The position numbers and the translations under genes are program-made. Shown here piece by piece: positions 4,262-60,514 of a DNA stretch of 64,000 nt; the stretch's first letter is position 1; each line of letters starts with the position of its first letter. The DNA is from an uncultured Candidatus Saccharibacteria bacterium (lineage in GTDB: Bacteria > Patescibacteriota > Saccharimonadia > Saccharimonadales > CAZMXN01): the NCBI GenBank assembly GCA_964570275.1, contig CAZMXN010000003.1:33165-97164 (forward strand). Reading direction: 5' to 3'. The notes beneath the pieces are model-generated. The model saw nothing but the letters and a program-made list of their open reading frames with translations. It was not told where the DNA came from and did no database searches.

Positions 4262-4684
4262 ATGATTACGCAGTTTGACGGCTATAACTACATCGTGCGG
4301 CTCGACAAAGGCGAGAAGCTGGTTGAGCAACTGACCCGTTTCGTCGTTGACAATCAGCTTACCGGCGGTTGGGTATTGGCCCTGGGCGGCCTCGCTTGGG
4401 CGGAGCTCGGCTTTTATGACCTGTCAGCTCAGCAGTATGAATGGCAGCGGCTGGACGAACTGCTGGAGTTGACCTCGCTGCAGGGCAACATCGCCTGGCA
4501 GGATGGCAAACCGGTACTGCATCTGCACGCTACGGTCAGTGATGCCTCGATGCATGCGCGGGGCGGGCACCTAAGAGAGGCCGAAGTTGCCGGCACGCTG
4601 GAGGTATTCGTTCATGTCTGGAACAAGGGCGAATTGAAGCGCGCCCCGGACGCCGAAGTCGGGTTGAGCACCCTGGATTTATGA
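4262..4684 (+). CDS. PPC (DUF296) domain protein
   Basis: The size (140 aa) and motifs (GGWVLALGGLAWAELGF..., LHLHATVSD, LEVFVHV) match the PPC/DUF296 fold. Its stop overlaps the rsmA start. Confidence 0.55.
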   Translation: MITQFDGYNYIVRLDKGEKLVEQLTRFVVDNQLTGGWVLALGGLAWAELGFYDLSAQQYEWQRLDELLELTSLQGNIAWQDGKPVLHLHATVSDASMHARGGHLREAEVAGTLEVFVHVWNKGELKRAPDAEVGLSTLDL

Positions 4685-5514
4685 GCGAACTGCCTTGGGC
4701 GAAGAAGAGCCTGGGACAGCACTGGCTGGAAGATACGGCCACCCTGGTCGCCATGTGCGAAGCCGCCGAGTTGGGACCTAAGGACACGGTGCTGGAGATC
4801 GGACCGGGCGTCGGCACGCTGACCCGCGAGCTGGTGCAGCGGGCGGACAGAGTTATCGCCGTTGAGTTTGACGAATCGCTGGCAAAAACGCTGCCGCTGA
4901 CTGTGCAGGCAACCAATCTTGAAGTTGTCCACGCCGATATTTTAAGTTTTGACCTCTCAAAGCTGCCGCCGGGCTATAAAGTGGCCGCCAACATCCCCTA
5001 TTATCTGACCAGCAAGTTGCTGCGCCGCCTGAGCGAAGCGGCCAACCCGCCTGAGGTTATGGCGTTGTTGGTCCAAAAAGAGGTCGCTGAGCGGATTGCG
5101 GCGCTGCCCGGTGACCTGTCGCTGCTGGGTGTCAGCGTCCAGTATTTCTACGAAGCGGTGCTTGGGCCGGTGGTGCCGGCAATATTGTTTACGCCGCCGC
5201 CAAAGGTCGATTCCCAAATTGTCAAGCTGACCCGTCATCAAAAGCCGCTCTTCGCTGACGTCAACGAGCAGCTGTTTTTCCGTCTGGTCAAAGCCGGCTT
5301 CAGCGCCCGCCGCAAGAAACTGCGCAGTTCCTTAAGCGGCGGACTCGGCATCAGCAAAAAGGAAGCTGTGGGTCTGTTGGAAAAGGCCTACATCGACCCC
5401 GACCTGCGTGCCCAGGCGCTGTCACTGGAGCAGTGGTACATGCTCTATCAGCAGGCCAGGTTACTGGGCATTTTCGACCCGCCAACCGCGCTGCCAAGTA
5501 TTGACAAAACATAA
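4681..5514 (+). CDS. rsmA: 16S rRNA (adenine1518/1519-N6)-dimethyltransferase RsmA/KsgA
   Basis: The KsgA signature KKSLGQHWL is present, with SAM-binding motif LEIGPGVGTLT and NIPYYLTS (the NxPY catalytic motif). Length is 277 aa. Confidence 0.9.
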   Translation: MSELPWAKKSLGQHWLEDTATLVAMCEAAELGPKDTVLEIGPGVGTLTRELVQRADRVIAVEFDESLAKTLPLTVQATNLEVVHADILSFDLSKLPPGYKVAANIPYYLTSKLLRRLSEAANPPEVMALLVQKEVAERIAALPGDLSLLGVSVQYFYEAVLGPVVPAILFTPPPKVDSQIVKLTRHQKPLFADVNEQLFFRLVKAGFSARRKKLRSSLSGGLGISKKEAVGLLEKAYIDPDLRAQALSLEQWYMLYQQARLLGIFDPPTALPSIDKT

Positions 5515-5614: not shown

Positions 5615-6006
5615 GGGGCTGAAATTATGCTCGACGTTGTACCTTATCGGTTAGATCAGCAGGTCGCTTGTCAGCGTTATAGGCAAAAATTGTAAATGCA
5701 AACGTATTTACTCGCGTAAAGAACGCAGTTGCTAGTGCTTTTGCACTGCCTCAGCTTTCTTTCGCAACAGTTCGAGTTTAATTACTTCGAACCGCGCCTG
5801 ACAGGACATCAGATACTGCCATCGCGCGCCATATCATCTGGTTGCGTCTGGTAACCGATCCGTAGCCGGACTATAGACAAACGGATCAACCTGCAAAACC
5901 TTTTGGCCGTTTCATATGTTTTGCAGTAATTCAAACGACCTAAACCTGTAGACGACTAACCAAGATAAGACTTCGGACGCGGGGGCAGTACCCGCCAGCT
6001 CCACCA
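5615..6006 (+). ncRNA. ssrA: tmRNA (ssrA), about 392 nt
   Basis: The 5' end GGGGCTGAAATTATGCTCGACG and 3' end GGACGCGGGGGCAGTACCCGCCAGCTCCACCA closely match the canonical enterobacterial tmRNA termini as I recall them (GGGGCUGAUUCUGGAUUCGACG ... GGACGCGGGUUCAACUCCCGCCAGCUCCACCA). The 7-bp acceptor stem GGGGCUG/CAGCUCC includes the G3:U wobble that is the alanine identity element, followed by ACCA. An A-rich GGCAAAAATTGTAAAT precedes a candidate resume codon GCA at 5698, resembling the E. coli pre-resume context. Confidence 0.8.
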
Positions 6007-6050
6007 TTCTACTTCGCTAAAGCTTCGTAGAATTTTAGTTCAATATAATG

Positions 6051-6083
6051 TCCTCCATAGCTTCAGCACCGGAGGGCTTTTTT
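6051..6083 (+). terminator. Rho-independent terminator-like hairpin plus T-run downstream of ssrA
   Basis: The sequence is TCCTCC-(14 nt loop)-GGAGGG followed by CTTTTTT. The loop is long, so confidence is moderate. Confidence 0.4.
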
Positions 6084-6108
6084 CTTGGTTTATAGCCTGT
6101 AGACTAGA

Positions 6109-6183
6109 CATTCCAGGGTCGGACCCTGGAAATAGGGAAATTGTGGTGTAATAAGTTTTTGAAGTTGGCTTGTCGGGGTTACA
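6109..6183 (+). repeat. Direct repeat copy A (about 75-85 nt) containing the perfect palindrome CCAGGGTC-G-GACCCTGG
   Basis: CATTCCAGGGTCGGACCCTGGAAATAGGGAAATTGTGGTGTAATAAGTTTTTGAAGTTGGCTTG...TCGGGGTT recurs at 7414-7497 in the same orientation at about 85% identity. Copy A sits 13 nt downstream of the stop of the 6196..6735 gene. Confidence 0.6.
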
Positions 6184-6195
6184 TTGTGTCTTGGG

Positions 6196-6735
6196 TTAAA
6201 AAATCCGCCAGACGGCGAAACTGATGCTCAGGAGGACGACGACCGAGGCGACGATGTTAGCAGCCGGGATGAGGATATCGTCGCCGTTGATTCGCTTTTG
6301 TTCGAGCGACTTGTTGAGCAGCAGGCTGCCGAGCAGGGTTACCAGCACCACCAGGGCAAAAATGGCGAAAATCAAAGCACTATAGCGGTAAATAAACACG
6401 CGGGTTAGCTCAAAATCCTGCAGCCAGGCCAGAAACAGACTCAGTCCGGCGACACCGAGCGTATTAATTGGGACGACTAAAAGCAGTGTCAGGTAAAGTT
6501 TGCGTCTGGCTTCCGGCGAAGTTTCCGGATCGCTGAGGTGCGCCGTGATTATAGAAGCCAGGTCGCCGGACATGGCGCCCAAGACCGGCAAAGCCAATAG
6601 CAGTGGCGTGACTGGCAGCAGATCCTTATGAACATATTGCAACCAGATGCCGCCAATCAGTCCTATCGAAGCGCCAACCACACTGGTGCGGATTGAAGCA
6701 AGCACGCTGCCGTGAGGCATTGGCAGGTGTTTCAC
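6196..6735 (-). CDS. MgtE-like integral membrane domain protein (second of a pair)
   Basis: This is a 179-aa polytopic membrane protein with motif LASIITAHLSDPE, resembling the MgtE TM-domain ASRLSTxLH segment. It overlaps the upstream paralog by 4 nt. Confidence 0.45.
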   Translation of the reverse strand: MKHLPMPHGSVLASIRTSVVGASIGLIGGIWLQYVHKDLLPVTPLLLALPVLGAMSGDLASIITAHLSDPETSPEARRKLYLTLLLVVPINTLGVAGLSLFLAWLQDFELTRVFIYRYSALIFAIFALVVLVTLLGSLLLNKSLEQKRINGDDILIPAANIVASVVVLLSISFAVWRIF

Positions 6736-7370
6736 GACATTACCCGCGATACCAGCACAATGGCCACCAGCGTAAAGGTGTGGAAGATGGTTGTCTCAAT
6801 CGGCGGGGCTACGTCATCGGGGTTGGCCCGGAGTCGGCGGGCCAGGAACATAACGCCTGTCATGAACGGAAAGCCGACCAGACCGGTTATCCCGCCGACG
6901 GCCACAGCCAGGGTTAACGTGCGGAGAAAGCCGGCCTCGAACAGGAACACGCCGATTATACCGGCCAGGCTACCAATGCAGGCGCTGGCGGCGAGCGCTA
7001 CGATCAGAGATTTCAAGACCGCCAGACACACGGCTTTGATTTTTGAACCTTCGATAGTATCAATCTCATGATGCAGGCTGGCCGTTAAGACGGCAGCGCT
7101 GGATGACAGCAGCTCGGCCAGCACCGGATAGAGCAGGAAGGTCGTGCCGACCAGCAGCAGGGCGGATTGATTCTGGCTGATATAGACACCAACGCCCATG
7201 GTAATAACCAGCGTAAATAACTGCCCCAGCATGATCTGTTTGGGGCTGACGTCGTGCAGCCGGCGTTTTTGAGCGTACAGGGTGCGCCAGTACGCGCTCC
7301 AGCTCTCGACATGGCTCAGCGGCACTTTGTCAATGTTAGTAATATCAGTAGTGTCTGTGTTAACCGGCAT
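6732..7370 (-). CDS. MgtE-like integral membrane domain protein (first of a pair)
   Basis: This is a 212-aa polytopic membrane protein with motif AVLTASLHHEID, resembling the MgtE TM domain. Tandem split MgtE-domain pairs are known in some bacteria and archaea. Confidence 0.45.
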   Translation of the reverse strand: MPVNTDTTDITNIDKVPLSHVESWSAYWRTLYAQKRRLHDVSPKQIMLGQLFTLVITMGVGVYISQNQSALLLVGTTFLLYPVLAELLSSSAAVLTASLHHEIDTIEGSKIKAVCLAVLKSLIVALAASACIGSLAGIIGVFLFEAGFLRTLTLAVAVGGITGLVGFPFMTGVMFLARRLRANPDDVAPPIETTIFHTFTLVAIVLVSRVMS

Positions 7371-7413
7371 AAATTTTGTCTTATCATACCACCCCCTCCC
7401 CTCCTACAGAAAC

Positions 7414-7497
7414 CATTCCAGGGTCGGACCCTGGAAATGAGGAAAATGTGGTGTAGTAGGTTTTTGTGGAGGCTTGGCAGGGCGTTGTTCGGGGTTT
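7414..7497 (+). repeat. Direct repeat copy B with the same palindrome CCAGGGTCGGACCCTGG
   Basis: This is a near-identical copy of 6109-6183. It begins 44 nt upstream of the start codon of the 6732..7370 gene, in its promoter region. Confidence 0.6.
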
Positions 7498-7504
7498 ATA
7501 TTTT

Positions 7505-7600
7505 GAGTTGTTGATTTGTTATCTTGCCTGGGGGTGACTATTTGCCTAGGGGCGTATATTTGTCTGGGAGGTATATTTGTCTGGGGTTTGTATTTCGCTT
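7505..7600 (+). repeat. Degenerate short tandem repeats (about 16-19 nt unit, about 5 copies) in a divergent intergenic region
   Basis: The units are TTGCCTGGGGGTGAC, TATTTGCCTAGGGGCG, TATATTTGTCTGGGAGG, TATATTTGTCTGGGGTTTG and TATTTCGCTTAGGGTTTAC. They share the core TATTTGYCTRGGG. Confidence 0.4.
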
Positions 7601-7653
7601 AGGGTTTACTTTTCAGCGGGGGCGGGTCAAAATCAATAGCATTATGCAGGGTA

Positions 7654-8415
7654 ATGTCAAAGAGGGAGCAAATGAGCAGTAAAGGCCGACTTAACCTAAG
7701 TCTTGATTTTCGGTTAATAACTATAATTCTGTTGGTTGTGATCGCGGCCATGCTGGCCCTGTGGCGGCCGTGGTCGGATGGCGGTGTTTCCGACCGCACT
7801 ATTGAGGTTACGGGTGAAGCGACGGTGTCCGCCGTGCCGGACGAGTATGTCTTTTATCCGGTGTATCAGTTCCGGCATGAGGATCAGCAGGCGGCGATTG
7901 ATGAGATGAGCGCCAAAAGCGACGAGCTGGTGGCTGACCTTGAGGAGCTGGGCGTAAGCGAAAACCAGATCAAGACTTCGGCTAACGGCTACGACCGGGG
8001 CGTGACGTTTCCGGAAGCAGACGGCGATACGCGCACTACCTACACGCTGACACTGACCGTTACGGTTAGTGATTCCGAGATGGCGCAGAAGGTTCAGGAC
8101 TATCTGACCGGCACCGGACCGACCGGCGCAGTCTCACCCCAGGCAACATTCAGCGATGACCGGCGCAAAGAGCTGGAGGCGCAGGCCCGGGACGAGGCGA
8201 CCAAAGACGCCCGCGCCAAGGCTGACCAGTCGGCCGCTAATCTTGGCTTTAAAGTCGGCAGCGTTAAGTCGGTAACCGACGGCGCCGGTTTCGGTGGCGT
8301 CCAACCGCTGATCGGCCGGGCCGAAATCGCCAGCGATTCATCGGCTCGCCTTGAGGTACGTCCCGGCGAGCAGGAGCTGAACTACACGGTTACCGTGACT
8401 TACTACGTTCGATAA
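7654..8415 (+). CDS. SIMPL/DUF541 family periplasmic protein (BP26/OMP28-like)
   Basis: There is an N-terminal TM/signal. The segments IEVTGEATVSAVPDEYVF..., TYTLTLTVTV..., ELEAQARDEATKDARAKADQSAANLGFKVGSVKSV and LNYTVTVTYYV match the SIMPL domain pattern. Confidence 0.65.
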   Translation: MSKREQMSSKGRLNLSLDFRLITIILLVVIAAMLALWRPWSDGGVSDRTIEVTGEATVSAVPDEYVFYPVYQFRHEDQQAAIDEMSAKSDELVADLEELGVSENQIKTSANGYDRGVTFPEADGDTRTTYTLTLTVTVSDSEMAQKVQDYLTGTGPTGAVSPQATFSDDRRKELEAQARDEATKDARAKADQSAANLGFKVGSVKSVTDGAGFGGVQPLIGRAEIASDSSARLEVRPGEQELNYTVTVTYYVR

Positions 8416-8616: not shown

Positions 8617-9795
8617 CTAAAACAGATCAAGCTGGCTGATTTCTGTCGGCAAAAAGCCTTCCGGATGCTTGAAGCCGGCTTCCCATTTGGTGCCTTTCTG
8701 GTAGCCGAGGTCTTTCATGAGCCTGGTTGGGGCGTTTCGTAAGTGCAGCGGCACAGGCAGGTCCGGGTGTTGGCGGGCCGCGGCCTGGGCGCGGTTCATG
8801 GCGTCGGTAACCACCCGCGATTTTTTGCACTTTGCGAGTACGGTGGCGCAGTGAAACAGATTATACTGGCACTCCGGCATGCCGATGCGCTCGACAGCCT
8901 GGAAAGTGGCCACGGCCAGGTTCAGGGCGGGCGAGGCGGCAATGCCGACGTCCTCGCTGGCAAAAATTACCATGCGGCGGGCGATGAATTTGGGATCCTC
9001 GCCGGCTTGCAGCATGCGGGCGAGATAGTACAGAGCCGCATTGGCGTCGGAGCCGCGCAGCGACTTAATAAAAGCGCTGATGACGTTGTAGTGCGTTTCG
9101 CCGCCTTTATCATAGCCGGGGACGCGTTTTTGGGCGGCCGTTTCGATGATCTCTGGTGTGATTTTATCTTGAGTGAGCTGCAGGGCCAGCTCCAGATTGC
9201 CCAGGGCTACCCGGGCGTCACCGCCGGACAGTTCGGCCAGCAGGTCAATGCTTTTAGCCGGCAGGCGCCGGGCGGTAAGTTTCTCGGCTTTGGCAGCGGC
9301 TTTAATTATTTTGATAATATCGGCTTTGCTGAGCGGCTGGAGGACCAGGACGCGCGAGCGGCTGAGCAGGGGGTTAATGACTTCGAAGCTGGGGTTTTCG
9401 GTCGTGGCGCCAATGAGCACAATGGTGCCGTTTTCTACATGAGGCAGGAAAGCATCCTGTTGGGCCTTGTTGAAACGGTGAATTTCGTCGACGAACAGCA
9501 CGGTGGTCATGCCGAGACGCTGGTTTTGCCGGGCATGCTCGATCACCTTAACGACGTCGGCCTTGCCGGCCGTGACGGCACTCAGCTCAATGAAGTCCGC
9601 GCCGGTTTCATTGGCGATAATCCGGGCCAGGGTGGTTTTGCCGCTGCCTGGTGGCCCCCACAAAATCAGACTGGTCGGCTGCTTTTTGGCGATCAGCTCG
9701 CGGATGATCCGCCCGCTTGCCACCAGGTGTTCCTGGCCGACGACGTCGTCAAGAGTTTGCGGCCGCATGCGTTCGGCCAACGGTGTTGCCTGCAT
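8617..9795 (-). CDS. rarA: Replication-associated recombination protein A (RarA/MgsA), AAA+ ATPase
   Basis: MRPQTLDDVVGQEHL precedes Walker A GPPGSGKTTLA, Walker B LFVDEIHRFNK and sensor GATTENP. A C-terminal MgsA helical domain is present. It is short, at 392 aa. Confidence 0.85.
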   Translation of the reverse strand: MQATPLAERMRPQTLDDVVGQEHLVASGRIIRELIAKKQPTSLILWGPPGSGKTTLARIIANETGADFIELSAVTAGKADVVKVIEHARQNQRLGMTTVLFVDEIHRFNKAQQDAFLPHVENGTIVLIGATTENPSFEVINPLLSRSRVLVLQPLSKADIIKIIKAAAKAEKLTARRLPAKSIDLLAELSGGDARVALGNLELALQLTQDKITPEIIETAAQKRVPGYDKGGETHYNVISAFIKSLRGSDANAALYYLARMLQAGEDPKFIARRMVIFASEDVGIAASPALNLAVATFQAVERIGMPECQYNLFHCATVLAKCKKSRVVTDAMNRAQAAARQHPDLPVPLHLRNAPTRLMKDLGYQKGTKWEAGFKHPEGFLPTEISQLDLF

Positions 9796-9856
9796 ACCTC
9801 TAGTATACCCGGTAAGTTGCTTTGGCAGCGGTTTTTAGGCCGGCCGATTATGTCCT

Positions 9857-12800
9857 TTAGACGTCGTTAGTGTCGGCCCGGCGGCGGATAATGTAGGCAA
9901 CTATGCCTACGATACCGACAATCGGTATCCACAAGTACCAGCAGAGTCCCAGGATTTTCGAACAGCTGCCGGAAACCAGATTCTCGGTTACGGCTGCGGC
10001 AATGTCGCTGCCGGTGGTAGCCGCCAGCGGCGTAACGGTTTCGTCATCGGCGGTTGTTAAGCCAAGCGACTCCTCGGCGTTGTTGGTGTCCGGAGTGCCG
10101 CCGGTACCACCGGTGCCGCCATCGGTTGTGCCGCCGGTATCGCCAGTTGACAAACCGTTCACTTCACCTCCGCCCGCTCCACCGGATGGTTCTGCAAAAT
10201 CAACCACCACTTCATCGGTCGAGTTGTTGCCGGCGCTGTCGGTGGTAGTCAGCTGGAAAGTGTAGGCGCCGAATTGATCGACAGTGACCGTCGGATTTGC
10301 GGCTGTGGAATCGCTGAAAGTAGCCGTACCCGGTCCGGCGGTTTGCGCCCAGGCATAGGTCGCGCCGGCGTCGTCGGAACTGCCGTTCAGCGCAGCCGAC
10401 TGACCAGTCACAGATTGGTCAGGTCCGGCCACAGCCGACGGCGGCGTGTTGTCGACAATGAAACTCCAAAGCGCACTCCAGAGGCTGGTATTACCGGCGT
10501 GGTCGATAGCGCGCACCTGCCATGTGTAAGCGCCATCCGGCAAAACAATGTTCGGCAAATTGTTAGCTGCGGTAGTTACAGTCGCTGCCAAATCGCTTCG
10601 AGTGTACTCAAACATGTGTACGTCCGTAGAGCCGTTGGCGTCCCATGTAAAGGTTAAAGGCGATGACGCAGACGCGTTTAGTACGCTACCGTCTGCTGGA
10701 CCTTGGAGAATAGGCGTGTTCGGTGCGATTGAATCGTAGTAGTAGTGAACCGGGGCGCTCCAGTCACTGGCGTTACCGGCAGCATCAACTGCCTGAACCC
10801 TAATAGTTACGCCACCTTGCTCGGCATCTGACGGTACGTGGTTGCGCCATGTAGTAGTGCCTGGAACAGTTCGGTATGGGCCACCTGCGAAGCCGTGTCC
10901 ATCGTCATATATGTACTCTATCCGGTAGTAGTCGATGCCGTTTGTATCGCTGGAAGCTGTCCATTGATTGAGAATCGGTGTGCTTGAGAAGTATTGCTCA
11001 TTTGCAGGCGTGGTTATTGTCGGGGCAGTAGGCGCCGCAGTGTCAACGACCACGTCGTTGTAATGGTACTTCCAGTTGCCGACTGCGTCGAAGGCCTGGA
11101 CTTTAAGACGGTAGAAGCCATCACTCAAGCCGGATACATCAAAATGCCAGTTGGTAGTACCGGATGCAGTACCGCTGTCAATGTTCCCGACATGGGTTCC
11201 GCCTAAAGCACTAATCTCAGTGACTGTGTAATTTACTTTTACCACCGAAGTCTGGTTGTCTGACGCTGTACCTTCAACAGTGAAGCTGCTGCCAGCAAAC
11301 GATTTGTCGGCTGGAGTTACCACCTGAACGGAAGGTTTAGTGTTGTCGGTAAAGAAGTGGTTGTAGATATCGGAACGGCCATTACCAACCACATCCTTAG
11401 TGAATAGCCTTAAGTTATATTGACCGTCATCAAGCGTGCTGGTGTCCAGCGTTATGGTGAGGGTGCCGCTATTAGCGTCGCCGCTATAGCTAATGGTGCC
11501 GGTGCCTGCAATCACGCTGCTGGCTCCGGTTTTGACATTGTAGGTCCAGTTGCCGGCAATGGAATTGTCCGGTCGGCGCATTACTATTTGTTGCTGGCCC
11601 AAGCCCGCACCGTTATCCGATATATCAACTTTAATTTCTACAGTGCCATTAAGGGTGGCGCCGGTTGTCGGTGAAGTAAACTGAGCTGCTTCCGGTGCGG
11701 TAGCATCAACTATCAGCTGCCATGGGGTAGTCCAGGCGCCGAAGCTGCCATCGGCGAACTTGGCCCGCACTTGCCAGTAGTAAACGCCGCCGCCCGTAGC
11801 GGAGGCATCTATCTCCGAGCCATTAACTTCAGTGGTGTAGATGGGTGAAGTCAGTGAACCGTCAGGGTTGAGCGCATTGTTGACTGCTGACTGGTACTGA
11901 TAAGCGACGGCATCGGCGACGTCTGTCCAATCCAGTATGCCGGGGCTGTTGGTCAAGGTGCCGTCGGCGGGGGATAGATGTATCGGCAGGTTGTAGAACA
12001 CTACTCGGCCCAGGCTGGCCAGATCGCCTTTATCGGTAATTTTAAGTTCGGTTTCGTCGCGCTCGCTTTGCGTCATTTCGTTGCCGGTTTTGCCATCGAA
12101 CCTGGCCTCGGCAGCGTTAAGGTTCTTAACCTGATAGTTAATGATGTGCATCAGGTCGTTGCCGGAAAAGCTGGTGTTGCCTAGATCGACCGGCGTATTA
12201 CCAGGACCGACGATGCTGTAACCCGGTGCGCCCAGAGCCTGAACGTTAGGGTCGCTGGTACCGACAATCTCAAGGCCTTTGGTGTTGTTGGTTATATGGT
12301 TGTTGCCGGTGAAAGTAACGTTTGTGATGTTGTGGCCGAAGTTGCCGGAGCTGTTGACGTTGTAGAAGGCTATTCCGGCCCAATCGTTGTTATCGGCCGT
12401 GACGTTGTTGAAAGTGTAGTCGCGCGAGTAATTGTCGCTGGCATCGAACCGGGCGGTTATGGCGAAGCCGTTTTTGCTGTAGTTGCTGGCCGTGACATTG
12501 TTAAGCGTAACTTTCCTGGTGCTGTTGAAATCGAGACCGCCCACTCGCTTCGGCGTGGTGTCAAGCCGGCCTGAGCCGTTAAAGTTCAGGTCGGTCAGAG
12601 TTAGCCGGCTGGCTTTGTAAACCTTGAAGTGGTAGCCGACAGTACTGTCAGCAGCCGGGACGGCCAGGGTCAAATTACTTAAGTCGATGTCATTTAAACC
12701 AGTTATGTCGATGCCGTAGGACTTGGTCCCGTCGGTTTCGATGACGGTGCCGGCTTGACTTTCACCGACCAGCTTGGTGCCGTGTTTGAGAAACTTCAGG

Positions 12801-14152
12801 CTTTCGGTGTAGATGCCGTCAGCGACATGGATAGTGCCGCCCTCAACGATGCGACTCATGGCGTCCTGGACTTTAGTGTAGGGATTCCAGGCGGACCCTT
12901 CGTCGCCAGTATTGCCGTTGGCTGCAGGCTGGACGTAGGTGTCAGACAGAAGTTTGATGCCACCGAACTGATTTTCGACCACGGCATCATTGTTCCGTTC
13001 ACTGATTTGAACAACCTTGCTGTCCGGGTATTCGTTAGTGCTGCCTGGGATAATCGCGATATCCAGCACGTTGCGATCAATCCCGGTGCCCCAGCTGTTG
13101 TTTCTGAAATTGATTACGGTGTCGGATAGGACGACCCAGCCTTTAGTGTGGGCGACATAGTTGTTCCTGATTTGGCCTGTAGCCTTGTCGTTGATGTAGG
13201 CGGGCTGGCGCACATGGACGAAGTCGTTGTTGCGAATGTCGAAGTCTTGAACGGTGCTTATTTCCAAGGCTCTTACAACGCTGCTGTCACCAATATTCCA
13301 TTGGCCGGTAAAGCTGTTGCCTAAGACACTGACATTGTCAGCTTGGACTTGAATCAAGTTATGTGGACCGACGTTGTCAGTTTTCTCAAACGCGATATCG
13401 CGGACTGTCGTGCCGTCGGCGGTAATCCTGAAAACCGGGTTGGTACCTGAGGTCTGGATGGTGGCGCCGCTATAACCGCGAACAGCAAGCTGCTTGTTAA
13501 TAACTATAGTAGAGGTGATAGCGTGGGTGCCGTTTAGGTGTAAGAGATCACCCGGAAAGGCCAGCGCTACCGCGTCAGCTAGCGTGTCGTAATAGAACTG
13601 CTGAGTAGCATTGAAGACCGCGTCGTGTGAAAACGATGGATTGGCAGCTTCCTTGCTGCTGACAGCTAAAATGCCGACCGACCGACGCTGACTGCTGTTG
13701 CCGCTGCTGCGGCCGTAAGTTTGCACGGCGGCCAGGCTTGGTATGTTCATTTGGTCGACCGGATCGGCGGATACACCGTCAAACAATTTAACGGTATCAC
13801 CGCTGTTGTTAAGCCAGTTGCCGCCAGCGTCAACAGCCAGGTAACCGTTGGCATTGATGACTGTACCGGCCGGCAAAACCTTCTCTTGAGTGGTGGCGTT
13901 ATCATCAAATCTTACTATCCAACCTGACACATCAGCGCCGGCTGGTCCGGCCAGCTCGACCCATTCGGTCGTTTCGTTGGAGCTAATCTCGTTAATATAA
14001 ACCGGGCTGCTCGAAAGTGCCGTAGCGGTCGACGCCGCCAAAAACGGGAACGCCGTAAGCAGGCCGCTGACTGACAGCACTAGGCTTATAAGGCCGGCCA
14101 GAAATCGGTGAATTAAGTTACTATTAGCCACCCCGTCAAGTTTGTCGCTCAT
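9857..14152 (-). CDS. Giant cell-surface protein (1431 aa) with a lamin-tail domain, parallel beta-helix repeats, Ig/FN3-like domains, a Gly/Thr-rich stalk and a C-terminal TM anchor
   Basis: There is an N-terminal signal/TM. The LTD-like segment is VYINEISSNETTEWVELAGPAGADVSGWIVRF...GTVINANGYLAVD. Many right-handed beta-helix-like N-x-T/S repeats follow (NVTFTGNNHITNNTKGLEI...). Repeated about 90-aa beta-sandwich segments contain W/Y (WQVRA..., YRLKVQAFDAVGN..., WQVRAIDHAGN...). A GGAGGGEVNGLSTGDTGGTTDGGTGGTGGTPDT low-complexity stalk precedes a C-terminal hydrophobic helix and an RRR tail. Confidence 0.7.
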   Translation of the reverse strand: MSDKLDGVANSNLIHRFLAGLISLVLSVSGLLTAFPFLAASTATALSSSPVYINEISSNETTEWVELAGPAGADVSGWIVRFDDNATTQEKVLPAGTVINANGYLAVDAGGNWLNNSGDTVKLFDGVSADPVDQMNIPSLAAVQTYGRSSGNSSQRRSVGILAVSSKEAANPSFSHDAVFNATQQFYYDTLADAVALAFPGDLLHLNGTHAITSTIVINKQLAVRGYSGATIQTSGTNPVFRITADGTTVRDIAFEKTDNVGPHNLIQVQADNVSVLGNSFTGQWNIGDSSVVRALEISTVQDFDIRNNDFVHVRQPAYINDKATGQIRNNYVAHTKGWVVLSDTVINFRNNSWGTGIDRNVLDIAIIPGSTNEYPDSKVVQISERNNDAVVENQFGGIKLLSDTYVQPAANGNTGDEGSAWNPYTKVQDAMSRIVEGGTIHVADGIYTESLKFLKHGTKLVGESQAGTVIETDGTKSYGIDITGLNDIDLSNLTLAVPAADSTVGYHFKVYKASRLTLTDLNFNGSGRLDTTPKRVGGLDFNSTRKVTLNNVTASNYSKNGFAITARFDASDNYSRDYTFNNVTADNNDWAGIAFYNVNSSGNFGHNITNVTFTGNNHITNNTKGLEIVGTSDPNVQALGAPGYSIVGPGNTPVDLGNTSFSGNDLMHIINYQVKNLNAAEARFDGKTGNEMTQSERDETELKITDKGDLASLGRVVFYNLPIHLSPADGTLTNSPGILDWTDVADAVAYQYQSAVNNALNPDGSLTSPIYTTEVNGSEIDASATGGGVYYWQVRAKFADGSFGAWTTPWQLIVDATAPEAAQFTSPTTGATLNGTVEIKVDISDNGAGLGQQQIVMRRPDNSIAGNWTYNVKTGASSVIAGTGTISYSGDANSGTLTITLDTSTLDDGQYNLRLFTKDVVGNGRSDIYNHFFTDNTKPSVQVVTPADKSFAGSSFTVEGTASDNQTSVVKVNYTVTEISALGGTHVGNIDSGTASGTTNWHFDVSGLSDGFYRLKVQAFDAVGNWKYHYNDVVVDTAAPTAPTITTPANEQYFSSTPILNQWTASSDTNGIDYYRIEYIYDDGHGFAGGPYRTVPGTTTWRNHVPSDAEQGGVTIRVQAVDAAGNASDWSAPVHYYYDSIAPNTPILQGPADGSVLNASASSPLTFTWDANGSTDVHMFEYTRSDLAATVTTAANNLPNIVLPDGAYTWQVRAIDHAGNTSLWSALWSFIVDNTPPSAVAGPDQSVTGQSAALNGSSDDAGATYAWAQTAGPGTATFSDSTAANPTVTVDQFGAYTFQLTTTDSAGNNSTDEVVVDFAEPSGGAGGGEVNGLSTGDTGGTTDGGTGGTGGTPDTNNAEESLGLTTADDETVTPLAATTGSDIAAAVTENLVSGSCSKILGLCWYLWIPIVGIVGIVAYIIRRRADTNDV

Positions 14153-30086: not shown

Positions 30087-31304
30087 ATGTCAGACTACAC
30101 CCAAGCGGTGACGCAGCGACAGAAACGGCTGATAGTGGCTCTAGTCTATGCCCTGTCAGTAGGTCTGACCGGACTCGGACAGGTTTTCTTTGGGATGAAC
30201 GTCTTTGCCGGCCAGATGACCGAACGCCGGATTACCTTGAGTACTTCGGAGGCCGGCGCCTCCTCAACCTATGCCGTCAGCTTTAAGCCGACGGTCACCA
30301 CCAACATCCTCGGTATAGTGGTTGAACTGTGCGTCGACAGCCCGATTATCGGCGTGGCTTGTGATAAGACCAACGGCGTGACCAACGTACCGGTTACCGG
30401 GCAGGTCACGGTGTCGCATAACTCCGGCAGCGAAGACTTTAACGTGCACACCAACTCGACGGCTGACGGGCTGCTGATTCTGTCCCATGCCACCGGGTTG
30501 ACTTCGGTATCGACTTCGGAGGAAGTGACCTTTTCGTTCACGGCCACCAACCCGCCAACGGCCTGCGGCGGCGCCCCGTCGAATCGCTGTTCGTACTACG
30601 GCCGGCTGTTAACATACTCGGCCGAAGCCGACGCCCAAGGCTATGACGACGAAGCACCGGGCTCGTTTATCGACCAGGGCGGTATCGCGCTTAGCACCGC
30701 CAATCAGCTGACCGTTAACGCCCGGGTGCAGGAAGTCCTGCAGTTCTGTGTCGGCACCGATGACGCCAACACGGCCGGTGACGTCACCGACGACTGCAGC
30801 GATATCACCGGGACGGTGATTGACTTAGGTGTCGTGGATTCCACGCTGATTAATGAATCAGCCAATGATGCCGGCAAGGCCATGGTCAGAACCAATGCCG
30901 TCAACGGCGTGGAGATAGTCTATTATGCCGAACAGGAAAACGGCAGCGGTTCACTCAAAGTGCCGGGTGCGACCTGTGCTCCGCCGTCGCTTACCGACCA
31001 GTGTTTTAACAGCGTTGGTACGACCGAAACGGCCATTACCGCCGGGACTGAGAACTTCGGCATGACCTCTACCGGTGTCAATGTCTCGAACGGCATTACC
31101 ACCAATCTGACGCGTGACACGGATTATGACGCCGATGTCGGCTATGCCTGGGATGACAGCGGTTCAACCGATATCCTGGCCTCCTCGACAACAGTTGTAG
31201 ACGACGAGATGCTGGAGCTTAAGTTCGCGGCTACCGCCAGCCCGACCACCCCGACCGGCGCCTATACCGTCACCGCTACCTTCATCGCCACGGCAACGTT
31301 CTAA
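30087..31304 (+). CDS. Secreted two-domain beta-rich surface protein, paralog 2
   Basis: It has a signal/anchor. Two domains each carry a Cys pair (ELCVDSP...GVAC and LQFCVGTDD...DDCSD). The C-terminus PTGAYTVTATFIATATF is identical to that of paralog 3. The C-terminal half is about 70% identical to paralog 3. Confidence 0.5.
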   Translation: MSDYTQAVTQRQKRLIVALVYALSVGLTGLGQVFFGMNVFAGQMTERRITLSTSEAGASSTYAVSFKPTVTTNILGIVVELCVDSPIIGVACDKTNGVTNVPVTGQVTVSHNSGSEDFNVHTNSTADGLLILSHATGLTSVSTSEEVTFSFTATNPPTACGGAPSNRCSYYGRLLTYSAEADAQGYDDEAPGSFIDQGGIALSTANQLTVNARVQEVLQFCVGTDDANTAGDVTDDCSDITGTVIDLGVVDSTLINESANDAGKAMVRTNAVNGVEIVYYAEQENGSGSLKVPGATCAPPSLTDQCFNSVGTTETAITAGTENFGMTSTGVNVSNGITTNLTRDTDYDADVGYAWDDSGSTDILASSTTVVDDEMLELKFAATASPTTPTGAYTVTATFIATATF

Positions 31305-31470: not shown

Positions 31471-32691
31471 ATGTTCAACGCTGGGGTCAGGAGCCGCCGT
31501 CTAACCGACGCAGCGACTGCATTTATGCTGATAGCGGCGCTGTTGGCACCAGTTTTCTACCCGCGGGCCGCGGCCGCCGAACAGCTGACGACCCGGAGCA
31601 TCACCCTGGGCAGCTCGGTCGCCGGCGCTACGGATGTGACCTACACGGTCACTTTCACCCAGGCGACCTACGGAGCGGCGCTGGAAGGCATCGTGATTGA
31701 TTTCTGCAGCAACAGCCCGATTGCCGGCCTGACCTGCACGACGCCCGCCGGTTTTGACGTTAATGAAAGCGGTTTGGCGGTGTCAGTCACGGGTATGGAC
31801 GGCGGCACGGCCTTTACTAAACACGCCAACACCGATACCAACACCCTGATTCTGACCCGAACCAACGCCACGCTGCAGACCGCCACCAATAACATAACGG
31901 TTACGCTGGGCGCCGGCGGCGGTTCGGACGGCATTACCAACCCGTCAACGGCTTGTGGCGGCACGCCGGCCGACAAGTGTACGTTTTACGCCCGCATCAT
32001 GACCTATGTCGACGACACCGCGGCGGCGGCCTACACCTCGACCAGCCCGGGCAGCTATCAGGATACGGGCAGCGTGGCGCTTAGTACGGCCAATCAGCTG
32101 ACGATTACGGCCCGGGTCCAGGAAGTTCTGCAGTTCTGCGTCGGCACCGAGGACGCTGATTCCAGCAATGACTGCGCTGACATAACCGGTACGATAATCG
32201 ATCTTGGTGTGGTGGACTCATCGCTGGTGGCGGCCTCGGCGGACGGCGCCGGTAAGGCCATGGTCAGAACCAATGCCGTTAACGGCGTGACAATCGGCTA
32301 TTACGCCGAGCAGAATGCCGGCAGCGGCCAGCTTAAAGTCGCCGGGGCCTCCTGCGCCGGCGGGTCATCGACCGACCAGTGCTTTAACAGCGCCGGCACG
32401 ACAGCCCAGGCGATTGTCGCCGGCACGGAAATGTTTGGCATGCGGGCCAATGCCGTCGATACTTCCAACGGCACGACAACCAACCTGGTACGGGACGCCG
32501 TTTATGCCTCGGCCGACTATGCCTGGGACGACTCCGGCTCACTCGATATAATCGCTTCGTCGGCCGGCTCCGGTGTCAAGGTGGTCGACGATGAGCTGGT
32601 CGAGCTGAAGTTCGCCGCCACGGCCGCCACCACTACTCCGACCGGCGCCTATACCGTTACGGCCACTTTCATCGCCACGGCAACGTTCTAA
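31471..32691 (+). CDS. Secreted two-domain beta-rich surface protein, paralog 3
   Basis: It has a signal peptide ending in the Ala-rich AAAE. It shares VQEVLQFCVGTEDAD...IDLGVVDS...AMVRTNAVNGV...FGM...YAWDDSGS...PTGAYTVTATFIATATF with paralog 2. Confidence 0.5.
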   Translation: MFNAGVRSRRLTDAATAFMLIAALLAPVFYPRAAAAEQLTTRSITLGSSVAGATDVTYTVTFTQATYGAALEGIVIDFCSNSPIAGLTCTTPAGFDVNESGLAVSVTGMDGGTAFTKHANTDTNTLILTRTNATLQTATNNITVTLGAGGGSDGITNPSTACGGTPADKCTFYARIMTYVDDTAAAAYTSTSPGSYQDTGSVALSTANQLTITARVQEVLQFCVGTEDADSSNDCADITGTIIDLGVVDSSLVAASADGAGKAMVRTNAVNGVTIGYYAEQNAGSGQLKVAGASCAGGSSTDQCFNSAGTTAQAIVAGTEMFGMRANAVDTSNGTTTNLVRDAVYASADYAWDDSGSLDIIASSAGSGVKVVDDELVELKFAATAATTTPTGAYTVTATFIATATF

Positions 32692-46255: not shown

Positions 46256-46744
46256 ATGTCCGAATTTACGCTTAACACGGATTCATCCGACTTCATGCCG
46301 CGCAGCAGTCACGCCAATTTCGAAGAGGACACTCCGGCTGACTATGGCCGGCCGCTTCTGCCGCTGGTGCAGTACAAGCCGGTAAGTTGTGGCAACTGTA
46401 TCGGGGCCTGCTGCCGCCAGGGCCTGACCCTGTCTTTAAGTCAGGAGGAGGCTGACTTCTTAGAGGGCTCGGGTACAGAGATGGTTGAGTATCCGGGTTC
46501 ACTAGCGCATAAGATTGCGGTGCGGCTGGGCGCGCACCGGCTGTACACCCTGCAAACCGACTGCGGAAATCTCGAAATTAATTTGGATAGCGGCCAGGCA
46601 CTTTGCGCCGCTTATGAGGATTCGCGCCGTCCGGAGATATGTGCTAAGTTTGAGGCCGGTTCGGCGGCCTGTCGGATTATTCGGGTGGCTAAGGGTGTTG
46701 ATAGTCCGGCTGAGCTTGCCCGCTACGATGCAGCCACCAGCTAA
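46256..46744 (+). CDS. YkgJ-family (UPF0153) Cys-rich putative Fe-S/zinc cluster protein
   Basis: The motif is CGNCIGACC plus a downstream CxxxxC...C. Length is 162 aa. Confidence 0.5.
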   Translation: MSEFTLNTDSSDFMPRSSHANFEEDTPADYGRPLLPLVQYKPVSCGNCIGACCRQGLTLSLSQEEADFLEGSGTEMVEYPGSLAHKIAVRLGAHRLYTLQTDCGNLEINLDSGQALCAAYEDSRRPEICAKFEAGSAACRIIRVAKGVDSPAELARYDAATS

Positions 46745-58274: not shown

Positions 58275-58817
58275 ATGAAGAAACTGAAACGCGCGGCTGA
58301 CACGCCCGACTATGTGCCGGACTACATGGCGAAGTCCCTGCTCGACGTGGATTTTGAAGCGCTTCGGGCGGCCGGGATCAAGTACGTGGCTTTTGACGCC
58401 GACTCTACGCTGGTGCACTTTCGCGGCCGGGTGTTGTCGGCTGAAACGAAGCTGTTTTTAAGGTCAAAACGCGGGCTTTTCTCGGGCTGGTGTATAGCCA
58501 GCAACCGGCTGACCAACGATCTGGTGCCGCTGGCCGAGAGCATGGACGCCCAGGTTATCCGGGCCAGTTTGTGGACGCGCAAACCGGGCCGCCGGTTTTT
58601 CGCGAAAGTCCTACAGTACCTCGGCGGCAAGCCGGCCGAAACAGCTATGATTGGCGACAAGCTGATTGCCGATATGTGGGGCGGCAAGCGGGCCGGCCTG
58701 GTGACGGTCTGGGTCGAAAAGATCGGACCGGACAGCCCGTGGGACAGATTGCTGGGGGTTAGGCGGCGCGAGAAGCGGCTGATGAGACGGCACGCTTTAG
58801 GCGAGGAGCAGGTATGA
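58275..58817 (+). CDS. HAD-superfamily phosphatase (YqeG/subfamily IIIA-like)
   Basis: VAFDADSTLV is HAD motif I (DxD). The MIGDKLIADMWGGKRAG segment fits motif IV. The start is refined to the ATG at 58275, within the longer track ORF that begins at 58110. Confidence 0.6.
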   Translation: MKKLKRAADTPDYVPDYMAKSLLDVDFEALRAAGIKYVAFDADSTLVHFRGRVLSAETKLFLRSKRGLFSGWCIASNRLTNDLVPLAESMDAQVIRASLWTRKPGRRFFAKVLQYLGGKPAETAMIGDKLIADMWGGKRAGLVTVWVEKIGPDSPWDRLLGVRRREKRLMRRHALGEEQV

Positions 58818-60514
58818 ACAGCCGGCTAAAAGCCAAGCTGGACGATCTGCCCAAAGCTCCGGGCGTTTATTTTCACAAAAACGCTAAAGGCGAGATCATT
58901 TATGTCGGCAAGGCCGCGGTGCTCCGTAACCGGGTCAGGCAATACTTTCAGCAGTCGCGGACGCGCGATCCGAAAACCGAAGCCTTAGTGAGCGAAATTG
59001 CCGACACTGACTGGATGGTGGTCGACAGCGAAATCGAAGCCCTGTTTTTAGAGGCCGAAATGATCCGCCGCTACATGCCGCGTTACAACATCCTGCTGCG
59101 TGATGACAAATCAATGACCTACATCCGGATTGATTACGACAGCGATTTCCCGACGGTCACGACTACCCGCCGCCCGCTGGATGATGGCGCCCGCTATTTC
59201 GGCCCGTACTTAAGCGCCCGCAGCGTTCGACAGGCCTTAAGGTTGCTGCGGCGAATTTTCCCGTTCTCGACCCGGCGTACGCCCGGCCAGAAACGGGCCA
59301 CCCTGCACTATCACCTCGGTCTGGACCCGGGTCTGGAAGAGGGCAAAACCAGCCTGGAAGACTACCGGGCCAACTTGCGCAAGCTCATGTCCATCATTGA
59401 AGGCAAGCGAAAAACCATCGAGAAAGATCTGGAGCGCGACATGAAGCGTTTAGCTAAAAACGCCCGGTTCGAGGAGGCGGCCCGGGCCCGCAACCAGCTT
59501 TTTGCCCTCCGCCGGCTCGATAATCAGGTGATCTTCAGCGACAAGGAGTTTCAGGACATCAGCAAGGACCATGCCCTAAATGAACTGGCCGAACTGCTGG
59601 GGCTTTATGAGGAAACGGCGGACAAACCCAGGCGGCGGCTGCTAAGACGGATCGAAGGCTACGATATCAGCCATATGCAGGGAACCGACGTCGTGGCCAG
59701 CATGGTGGTGTTTACCAACGGCGTCAGCAACAAGGGCGAGTACCGCAAATTCAAAACCAAAATCAACAAAAACGACGATTTCTATAACATGCACGAAACG
59801 ATTACGCGCCGGCTCAGCGACCGCAACCGGCAAAAGTGGGGCCTGCCGGACCTAGTGCTGATTGACGGCGGCAAGGGTCAGCTCGACGCGGCAATCCGGG
59901 CGCGTGATGAGGCCGGTCTGACGACGATTCCGTTTATCGGGCTGGCCAAGCGGGAAGAACAGGTGGTGATACGGAAGGGGACAGGTAGCAGACAACAGAT
60001 AACAGATAACAAGGAACAGACAACAGGTAACAGGCAACAAATAACAGATAACAGGGAGCAAAGAGCCATCAGCCAGGTTCCAAGTACTAAGATCCAAGAT
60101 CCAAGAACTAATAACCAGGAACTAAGCACTAACAAGCCGGGCAGCAGCGTCCAGCTTGATTTGGAGGTCTTGCGCCGGCTGGGCGGCTTCGCCCAGGAAA
60201 CGGGCGATTTTATCCTCTTGAATCTGCCTAAGTCGACCAACCTGGTCAAGTTATTGCAGCGCATCCGCGACGAATCGCATCGTTTCGCCGTCAGCTATCA
60301 CTCGGTCCTAAAAGCCAGGCGCCAGACTGCCAGCCTGCTGGATGAGGTGCCGACGATCGGGCCGGCCACCAAGAAGAAACTGCTTAAAACGTTCGGTTCG
60401 GTTAAGGGCGTGATCCAGGCCCGTGACTGGGAGCTGGAGAAAACCATCGGTGCCAAGAAAGCAGTCATTCTGCGCCAGTACCTGCGGGCTTATAAAAAGC
60501 GTACCGACGGCTAG
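58814..60514 (+). CDS. uvrC: Excinuclease ABC subunit C (UvrC) with an internal low-complexity insertion
   Basis: The GIY-YIG domain reads GVYFHKNAKGEIIYVGKAAVLRNRV...EALFLEAEMIRRYMPRYNI. The UvrBC interaction region, an RNase H-like endonuclease domain and a C-terminal (HhH)2 are present. A Q/N/T-rich insertion of about 50 aa lies at about aa 395-450. Confidence 0.85.
   Translation: MNSRLKAKLDDLPKAPGVYFHKNAKGEIIYVGKAAVLRNRVRQYFQQSRTRDPKTEALVSEIADTDWMVVDSEIEALFLEAEMIRRYMPRYNILLRDDKSMTYIRIDYDSDFPTVTTTRRPLDDGARYFGPYLSARSVRQALRLLRRIFPFSTRRTPGQKRATLHYHLGLDPGLEEGKTSLEDYRANLRKLMSIIEGKRKTIEKDLERDMKRLAKNARFEEAARARNQLFALRRLDNQVIFSDKEFQDISKDHALNELAELLGLYEETADKPRRRLLRRIEGYDISHMQGTDVVASMVVFTNGVSNKGEYRKFKTKINKNDDFYNMHETITRRLSDRNRQKWGLPDLVLIDGGKGQLDAAIRARDEAGLTTIPFIGLAKREEQVVIRKGTGSRQQITDNKEQTTGNRQQITDNREQRAISQVPSTKIQDPRTNNQELSTNKPGSSVQLDLEVLRRLGGFAQETGDFILLNLPKSTNLVKLLQRIRDESHRFAVSYHSVLKARRQTASLLDEVPTIGPATKKKLLKTFGSVKGVIQARDWELEKTIGAKKAVILRQYLRAYKKRTDG
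59990..60140 (+). repeat. Degenerate tandem repeat DNA (AACAGATAACAGG-type units) inside uvrC
   Basis: The sequence is CAGACAACAGATAACAGATAACAAGGAACAGACAACAGGTAACAGGCAACAAATAACAGATAACAGGGAGC ... followed by GATCCAAGATCCAAGAAC. It encodes RQQITDNKEQTTGNRQQITDNREQ... and is AT-richer than its flanks. Confidence 0.5.

Follow-up and report, generated by a model that had tools for sequence, protein, structure and literature searches.

In Escherichia coli and Pseudomonas, repetitive extragenic palindromes (REPs) and the REPINs, in which they stand as inverted doublets, go together with REP-associated tyrosine transposases (RAYTs, or TnpA-REP), Y1/HUH transposases whose gene has the palindrome on both sides (PMC3479197, PMC3116915, PMC5581495). 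The REPs of E. coli are imperfect hairpins with a bulge and need a conserved 5' GTAG (PMC3479197). REP copies number 57-140 for RAYT groups 2 and 3 and 12-14 for groups 1 and 4, and the RAYTs themselves are fixed and vertically inherited (PMC5581495). Here we describe a system of this type in Saccharibacteria, where the host belongs to a phylum of the Candidate Phyla Radiation (CPR, or Patescibacteria), unlike the hosts of the systems described above. The DNA analyzed is a 64-kb stretch (64,000 nucleotides, ~57% GC; hereafter the window) of contig CAZMXN010000003.1 from an uncultured Candidatus Saccharibacteria bacterium, and the feature in question is a pair of direct repeats, copy A and copy B, which enclose two membrane-protein genes beside the transfer-messenger RNA (tmRNA) gene ssrA.

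A preliminary description of this DNA had proposed a small mobile cassette integrated at ssrA with a duplication resembling attachment (att) sites, and had named as an alternative a dispersed repeat of the REP or miniature inverted-repeat transposable element (MITE) type. The alternative was essentially right: the palindrome contained in the repeats was found at 30 unrelated loci in public sequences and is tied to a RAYT-like gene. We consider it likely that the two repeats of the window are solo 5'-terminal modules of a Saccharibacteria REP-RAYT unit and not the scars of an integration event. REP/RAYT is a known kind of feature, found here in a little-studied phylum and widespread in Saccharibacteria; among the papers listed by a literature search, and judged by title and abstract, none describes RAYTs or REPs in this group.

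The direct repeats and their palindrome family

Direct repeats had been reported on either side of the gene pair, and they are real: copy A and copy B (coordinates in Table 1) are 89-91% identical. Over the ungapped stretch 6109-6161 versus 7414-7466 the identity is 91% (53 nt), and over the full coordinates 65 of the 73 ungapped columns match (89%), with a further 13 gap columns that belong mostly to an indel missing from copy A, where ~11 nt are deleted relative to copy B. The palindrome described in each copy is likewise present, its length being 21 nt and not 17: it is a perfect inverted repeat of two 10-nt arms around one central base (10-1-10, TTCCAGGGTC-G-GACCCTGGAA), which stands in the same orientation (central G) in both copies, folds as single-stranded DNA into a 9-bp stem with a 3-nt loop, and has no stop codon in any frame. 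By chance, a 17-mer with at most three mismatches is expected 0.17 times per window, and none of the shuffled sequences gave as many as were observed; the family consensus (TTNCARGGNNNNNCCYTGNAA) with at most one mismatch is expected 0.04 times. The 64 kb held no palindrome copies besides those in A and B. Two weak third sites, at 46417 (3 mismatches) and 43647 (2 mismatches to a degenerate consensus, non-palindromic), were taken as chance.

The repeats also flank the gene pair closely, as had been described. Copy A begins 102 nt past the tmRNA gene, ends 12 nt before the stop codon of the downstream gene of the pair and sits between two convergent 3' ends, and copy B lies on the other side, beginning 43 nt ahead of the start codon of the upstream gene, between the divergent starts of the pair and of the SIMPL gene. 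The two copies have diverged by ~10%, apart from an indel, and a second strain (L045/L046; the labels L001-L050 denote the public loci and contigs that were compared with the window) has both of them; their duplication is therefore old.

When public sequences were searched for further copies, the exact palindrome (central base free) was found at 13 loci in GTDB genome representatives and at 17 in JGI metagenomes, where about 1 exact match was expected by chance, as estimated from the pattern length and the collection size. None was found among the 2.9 million viral contigs of IMG/VR, and on this account a phage att site was rejected. Most of the matching contigs are Saccharibacteria-like, with 37-55% GC and a central C or G in the palindrome; a second group has 65-74% GC and a central A or T, and one of its members (L013) is titled Gaiellales. 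The flanking sequences of different loci are unrelated to each other, and what is conserved is thus the palindrome itself. Its exact 21-nt sequence is kept across genomes of 38-57% GC, and immediately beside it a T at position -1 (13/22) and an A at position +1 (18/22) recur.

Representative genomes hold the exact 21-mer at 1-5 places, short of the hundreds of unrelated sites that the preliminary description had associated with a generic REP element. There are 5 exact copies at 4 places in the metagenome-assembled genome (MAG) ELA178, 4 in MAG co105_5, 3 within 14 kb of L029 and 2 in the window, and variants with one mismatch are also present. As with REPs, though at low copy number, the same palindrome is scattered through the intergenic DNA of one genome, in some cases between convergent genes (L010, L012) and in several at gene 3' ends, most copies having no T-run; inverted doublets like those of REPINs were seen in L002/L027, L003 and L021. 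Unlike REPs, the Saccharibacteria copies are also found inside coding sequence (L001, L004, L008, L022), where they are in frame.

Two further candidates for the palindrome were tried and rejected. For a DNA-uptake sequence, the window shows no enrichment of the half-site by itself; for an SOS/LexA box, the copies near uvrA, uvrD and uvrC elsewhere lie downstream of or inside the genes, and uvrA, uvrC and uvrD of the window have none.

A RAYT-like transposase linked to the palindrome

An all-against-all BLAST of the open reading frames (ORFs) near the palindrome loci revealed a single widely recurrent family, a ~205-aa transposase present at 7 loci. It matches the Pfam family Y1_Tnp (IS200-like) at 30-40 bits (cut-off 23). 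The family is large in Saccharibacteria, with 7,886 matches at E < 1e-5 that are mostly 203-208 aa long, and some database entries (IMG) already bear the name RayT. The motifs YH..NRG, MPNH[FY]H (the HUH motif) and SRYIHLN (with the catalytic Tyr) are invariant in the family alignment. In searches of the PDB by sequence, a single transposase sequence was uninformative and the profile was marginal (ISDra2 TnpA, E = 0.06); the RAYT-like assignment was settled not by this search but by the fold search. An AlphaFold2 model of the transposase (pLDDT 90.6) had as its best PDB match 4er8, the E. coli TnpA-REP in complex with a REP hairpin (E = 5e-7, TM 0.65 on the target), and the TnpA proteins of IS608 and ISDra2 ranked behind it (~6e-5).

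We then compared eight complete transposase loci from different lineages (L004, L006, L029, L039, L041, L043, L047 and L048); a ninth, L017, is cut by the contig end. In all eight, the gene is flanked on both sides by a 21-nt 10-1-10 palindrome, which links the palindrome to this transposase family and corresponds to the arrangement of REPs around RAYT genes. The upstream palindrome ends 22-30 nt before the transposase start, and the second one lies shortly past the stop; at L029 the two are in the same orientation and 701 nt apart, the intact unit measuring ~700 nt. The arms vary by lineage (TTCCAGGGTC, TTCCAAGGAC, TTCCAAGGAG, TTGCAAGGAG and TTACAGGGTG), and palindrome and transposase co-vary between lineages as they do in REP/RAYT systems. 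The two arms of the palindrome also change together: across 13 distinct palindromes the pairing is kept in 99.2% of cells, double changes are found at 5 of the 10 pairs, and the covariation score is 0.458 as against 0.147 for shuffled arms (0/500 shuffles as high). Every intact locus furthermore has a TGTARTAD box between palindrome and start codon, 6-9 nt before the start. This box resembles an extended -10 and, judged by its sequence and position, suggests that the transposase mRNA is leaderless.

In two different genomes (L047 and L048, ~9342-11155) the transposase and its two palindromes lie between ruvA and ruvC. This common placement suggests a fixed, domesticated gene and is consistent with vertical inheritance, as would be expected of a RAYT. 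The insertion sequences of the IS200/IS605 family and their transposase-less derivatives (palindrome-associated transposable elements) resemble the Saccharibacteria loci as well, with a Y1 HUH transposase, subterminal hairpins at both ends, a left end upstream of the gene and a unit of ~700 nt. However, their two hairpins are imperfect and unlike each other and the elements are multi-copy, whereas in Saccharibacteria the same perfect palindrome is found on both sides and the genes, as seen from the L047/L048 synteny, look fixed; the fold match to their TnpA proteins is also weaker than that to the RAYT.

As a separate observation, the high-GC contigs (L013, L014, L016-L018, L020 and L021; 65-74% GC) have the same 10-nt arms around their central A or T. 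In L017 the palindrome adjoins a Y1 transposase that is 27-33% identical to the Saccharibacteria proteins. Saccharibacteria transposases that are ~50% identical to each other already differ in their arms, and identical arms in the high-GC contigs were thus unexpected; transfer between an epibiont and its host phylum and a shared constraint are two possibilities. On a more speculative note, the ~65-85-nt module could be a promoter-carrying mobile element spread through Saccharibacteria genomes by a RAYT-like enzyme (it is found in frame in uvrC too), two of which could capture and move a resident operon, and the presence of the same arms in contigs of Gaiellales-like Actinobacteria beside a ~30%-identical transposase would point to an exchange of the REP/RAYT system with the phylum that supplies the hosts of Saccharibacteria. 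We hold this to be improbable.

Origin of the window copies

After orientation of the window copies by their central G, the 50-60 nt past each palindrome aligned to the post-palindrome region of the L006/L024 and L029 transposase genes, the promoter-like box (TGTAATAA in copy A, TGTAGTAG in copy B) included. In copy B the alignment covers the decayed first twelve codons (GCTTGGCAGGGCGTT...GGGGTTTATATT versus ATGCCTGGCAGGAACGTT...AAAATTTATCTT), the remnant of codons 1-12 reading GCTTGGCAGGGCGTTGTTCGGGGTTTATATT where L006 has ATGCCTGGCAGGAACGTTAATAAAATTTATCTT, and LGRALFGVYI versus PGRNVNKIYL at the peptide level. Local alignment of copy B to L006 gave z = 5.6, with none of 1000 shuffles as high, and z = 3.0 to L029; for copy A and L029, z was 3.2. 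Given that both repeats align past the palindrome with a transposase promoter-like region and first codons, they are probably solo 5'-end units of the REP/RAYT system. A unit of this form was also seen in L022, a Saccharibacteria contig of 40% GC, where a variant palindrome is followed by TTGTGGTGTAATATGTTTTT, 19/20 identical to the copy A core TTGTGGTGTAATAAGTTTTT; it occupies 10870-10921, in frame inside uvrC (9752-11248), and encodes IANPKKHITPQKPILQGPSLQ. A tblastn search of the L022 locus gave no match to a transposase homologue.

The module would thus consist, in order, of the 21-nt perfect hairpin palindrome (the REP), a TGTARTAD box ~15-20 nt later, and then the first ~12 transposase codons. 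By analogy with the TnpA-REP and IS200/IS605 enzymes (PMC3479197), the transposase would recognize the palindrome as a single-stranded hairpin and would cut and rejoin DNA beside it. New copies would arise in this manner at other places, whether between convergent genes, ahead of a gene or within one in frame. The two copies of the window may have originated in this way, through a transposase acting in trans. Detachment of a module that includes the promoter-like box and first codons could come about, as one possibility, if a pseudo-end inside the gene start were used. If the -10-like boxes are active, the one in copy A is predicted to direct antisense transcription into the gene pair, and the one in copy B to direct transcription toward the SIMPL gene.

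Copies in frame inside genes were found at several other places. In L001 the bare 21-nt palindrome (1368-1388) aligns as a 7-aa insertion, FQGRTLE, in uvrC; in L004 (945-965, the same as L019 1033-1053 and L030 329-349) it replaces the conserved KKGREYP of the transposase itself, giving FQGRTLE; and in L008 (468-488) it joins the acetyltransferase-like and hydrolase-like halves, as judged by eye, of one long ORF. The copies in uvrC and in the transposase gene itself are a small curiosity. The Rickettsia palindromic elements, of ~100-150 bp, also insert in frame into coding genes without destroying them, and are not known to be linked to a Y1 transposase; the Saccharibacteria pieces are similar in their in-frame insertion and have a length of 21 nt (7 codons) or ~63 nt. 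In the uvrC gene of the window (58814-60514) we observed a long low-complexity insertion of 14-nt tandem repeats (59981-60060; QQITDNKEQTTGNRQQITDNREQ...), which occupies the same variable site as the REP unit in uvrC of L022; no REP remnant was detected within it.

Several points weigh against the assignment of the repeats to a REP-RAYT system or set them apart from the classical systems. The Saccharibacteria arms are perfect and have no bulge, and the conserved 5' GTAG was absent from the 22 flanks examined. The copy number is low in comparison with classical REPs, with a few copies per genome and not tens to hundreds, which is far below RAYT groups 2 and 3 and nearer to groups 1 and 4. The protein, at ~205 aa and with an extra C-terminal region, has REP_Tyr_transpos as its sole NCBIfam match, at 39-45 bits, below the cut-off of 80. 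The 64-kb window contains no transposase gene (tblastn best E = 0.078), and a candidate for a residual transposase body past copy B was rejected, the tblastn match having only E = 0.79 and lying within the tandem-repeat region. Copy A resembles the transposase leaders less than copy B does (z = 1.7 to 3.2). Furthermore, the window unit differs from REPs in carrying the promoter-like box and first transposase codons beyond the hairpin, and the assignment does not account for the nearly identical end point of both copies in the transposase gene start. Finally, the co-variation of the arms fits a hairpin and a symmetric, dimeric double-strand site equally and cannot separate the two.

This last point leads to another explanation, namely that the palindrome is an operator bound as double-stranded DNA by a dimer, either of the transposase or of another protein, with copy B controlling the divergent promoters and copy A allowing looping. 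Perfect 10-1-10 symmetry is typical of operators, copies per genome are few, and copy B lies between two divergent starts and beside -35 regions; moreover, the palindrome of every transposase locus immediately precedes the -10-like box, a position from which autoregulation would be possible. An operator is, however, at odds with the location of copy A between convergent 3' ends and of other copies between convergent genes or inside coding sequence, and only the Y1 transposase recurs near the sites, with no regulator gene and with adjoining genes that are functionally unrelated. We regard an operator as unlikely, although copy B may act as one locally. The palindrome resembles a GntR/FadR-type operator, with a GGTC-N-GACC core; this candidate was rejected, as no regulator gene recurs beside the sites.

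The gene pair, the tmRNA gene and their surroundings

The segment bracketed by the repeats contains the two membrane-protein genes only, and its neighbors are KsgA, tmRNA, SIMPL and MgsA; the earlier remark that no integrase is present was thus correct. The label of MgtE-like that had been given to the pair is a weak one: against the MgtE transmembrane domain (PF01769) the 212-aa protein reaches 23.9 bits, short of the cut-off of 27.6, Pfam returned nothing for the 179-aa protein, and an NCBIfam scan of the pair gave no match. Neither the 212-aa protein nor its family profile had a significant sequence match in the PDB. The two proteins are distant paralogues with a common N-(P/G)-D-D...P motif, and their genes are always paired in relatives. 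Among 5.8 billion proteins the homologues of the 212-aa protein form 10 clusters, as against 963 for the neighboring SIMPL gene; precomputed PF01769 matches exist in 3 of the 10, and JGI has given one the name 'cation transporter-like permease'.

In other lineages the pair is found in varied surroundings. In L033-L035 (61% identity) the order is KsgA(+), DEAD helicase(-), pair(+), MarR(+), tmRNA(+). In L036 (57% identity, read in the orientation of the window) KsgA is followed by a 263-aa gene, tmRNA, ~8 kb of other sequence, the pair(-), a 97-aa gene and, on the opposite strand, a 253-aa gene that equals the window SIMPL gene in length. In L049 (9057-11199) and L050 (9540-11190), at 44-47% identity, the pair directly follows a cation diffusion facilitator (CDF) gene in the same direction (Pfam Cation_efflux/ZT_dimer), with no tmRNA nearby; this neighbor provides the clearest hint at present of a role for the pair in metal-ion transport and, like the precomputed PF01769 matches, lends indirect support to the MgtE label. 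No flanking direct repeat or family palindrome was found within 10 kb of the pair in these five other lineages, so the repeats do not belong to the pair. The pair is probably an ordinary resident operon, cation-transporter-like, that lies between two repeat copies by chance and is not cargo integrated at ssrA.

The only close strain (L045/L046, of the same species but from other samples, 96-99% nt identity) has the same filled layout with both units. The next relatives, at ~60% protein identity, are rearranged, and the nearest non-self SIMPL homologue is 63% identical, the one context of it that was examined being unrelated. Between the window and the close strain, the 102-nt spacer after the tmRNA CCA is exchanged for an unrelated 68 nt, which has a different terminator hairpin and carries extra half-site fragments (TTTCCAG ATTCCAGG). 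Homology is lost directly past the tmRNA CCA and picks up again at the palindrome of copy A or 1 nt ahead of it, and the flanks are near-identical. A non-homologous spacer between near-identical flanks marks the tmRNA/REP junction as a site of sequence replacement, in which the gene pair is not involved.

It could be argued that the pair is cargo bounded by REPs, in which the direct units act as ends of the IS200/IS605 type and a RAYT in trans, or homologous recombination, moves the 1.3-kb pair. Such a model could account for the co-orientation of the window palindromes, which is shared by those flanking the L029 transposase, for the different position and orientation of the pair relative to tmRNA in L033, L036 and the window, for the patchy distribution of the pair in comparison with SIMPL, and for a strain polymorphism that stops so close to the left edge of the copy A palindrome. 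It is contradicted by the nature of both units, which are 5'-end modules with no 3'-end partner, and by the five lineages that carry the pair without repeat or palindrome. In addition, the only close strain is also filled, the ~10% divergence and the indel between the copies speak against a recent duplication or transposition, and no second copy of the pair is known. We consider REP-bounded cargo quite unlikely.

The palindromes might also be generic hairpins, such as terminators or mRNA-stabilizing stems, or a chance repeat. Chance is excluded by the expectations of 0.04-0.17 per window given above. The stem is stable, several copies are at gene 3' ends, and a scan flagged the minus strand of copy B as terminator-like, but a T-run is missing from most copies, the pair owns a terminator-like hairpin (6219-6204) before copy A, and a generic stem would not explain an exact 21 nt kept across genomes of 38-57% GC that co-varies with the adjacent transposase. 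This possibility appears very improbable.

tmRNA genes are known integration sites, and the relative L033 (also L034 and L035) provides an example from this group: an ~85-nt direct repeat (12702-12790 and 12902-12990, ~200 nt apart) consists of the tmRNA 3' 19 nt and ~65 nt of downstream sequence, its second copy lying ahead of a GIY-YIG gene. This duplication is likely the scar of an element integrated at ssrA, so ssrA appears to be a hot spot in this clade, although not as proposed for the window. For the window itself, the mobile cassette originally proposed, a classical island inserted at the 3' end of tmRNA and bordered by the repeats as its attL and attR, resembles known ssrA islands in its place beside ssrA and in the direct repeats around a small gene set, and has the variable post-tmRNA spacer in its favor, but is extremely unlikely: the repeat units share nothing with the tmRNA 3' end (no second copy of its 19 nt with <=3 mismatches is present in the window) and begin at a distance from it, there is no integrase, the palindrome is missing from viral contigs, the repeat is homologous to transposase upstream regions at many unrelated, non-ssrA places, the pair occurs without repeats in five lineages, and the close strain has the same layout.

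These findings remove a false lead, in that the locus would be neither an ssrA island nor a mobile MgtE cassette, and Saccharibacteria, whose genomes are very small and repeat-poor, gain a defined REP/RAYT-type system. Its signature, TTnCArGGnn-n-nnCCyTGnAA on both sides of a ~205-aa Y1 transposase, can be searched for and should be useful for annotation and for explaining local rearrangements and strain polymorphisms beside the sites. The co-varying hairpin/enzyme pairs are furthermore a natural set for studying how HUH transposases read DNA.

The features of the locus are collected in Table 1. The identification of tmRNA as the left neighbor was borne out by Rfam, which found no other RNA family in the window; ARAGORN made no tmRNA call in this region. 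The T-loop region of this tmRNA is GCGGGGGCAGTACCCGC, which deviates from the usual GGTTCGAATCC type. The SIMPL gene is called publicly with 247 aa, implying a start at 7672, and upstream of it, in the copy B region, there is a consensus promoter match, TTGGCA-17-TATATT, at 7474-7502.

Table 1. Features at the repeat locus, in window coordinates.
Feature	Position	Strand	Remarks
KsgA gene	4681-5514	+	left neighbor of tmRNA
tmRNA (ssrA)	5615-6006	+	Rfam RF00023, 69.2 bits, E = 7e-25, full length; adjoins the element, outside it
Spacer from tmRNA to copy A	6007-6108	+	terminator-like hairpin with T-run ~6052-6084 (by eye); varies between strains
Copy A repeat	6109-6183	+	palindrome 6111-6131; -10-like TGTAATAA ~6147-6154; decayed first transposase codons
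Downstream gene of pair, 179-aa membrane protein	6196-6735	-	174 aa as called in relatives
Upstream gene of pair, 212-aa membrane protein	6732-7370	-	overlaps downstream gene
Copy B repeat	7414-7497	+	palindrome 7416-7436; -10-like TGTAGTAG ~7452-7459; remnant of transposase codons 1-12
Tandem array, ~7 degenerate 17-18-nt units GGGG.GTATATTTGTCT	7487-7625	+	repeat search, Tandem Repeats Finder (TRF), by eye
SIMPL/YggE-family gene	7654-8415	+	PF04402, 105 bits; right neighbor

The tandem array begins within copy B, at the right end of the repeat, and the corresponding end of copy A looks like a single array unit; amplification of part of the transposase-start remnant may have given rise to the array. 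TRF alone delimits it to 7524-7586 (period 18, 3.6 copies), the other units having been recognized by eye, and it is kept upstream of SIMPL in the second strain. Elsewhere in the window, 30087-31304 and 31471-32691 are adjacent tandem paralogues of ~405 aa with stretches that are 82-84% identical at the nucleotide level. The second strain (L045) has between its G5-domain and PCC-domain genes an extra gene (4659-5270) that the window does not have at the corresponding place (4176/4215); its 203-aa product looks, from its sequence by eye, like a secreted or membrane-type protein.

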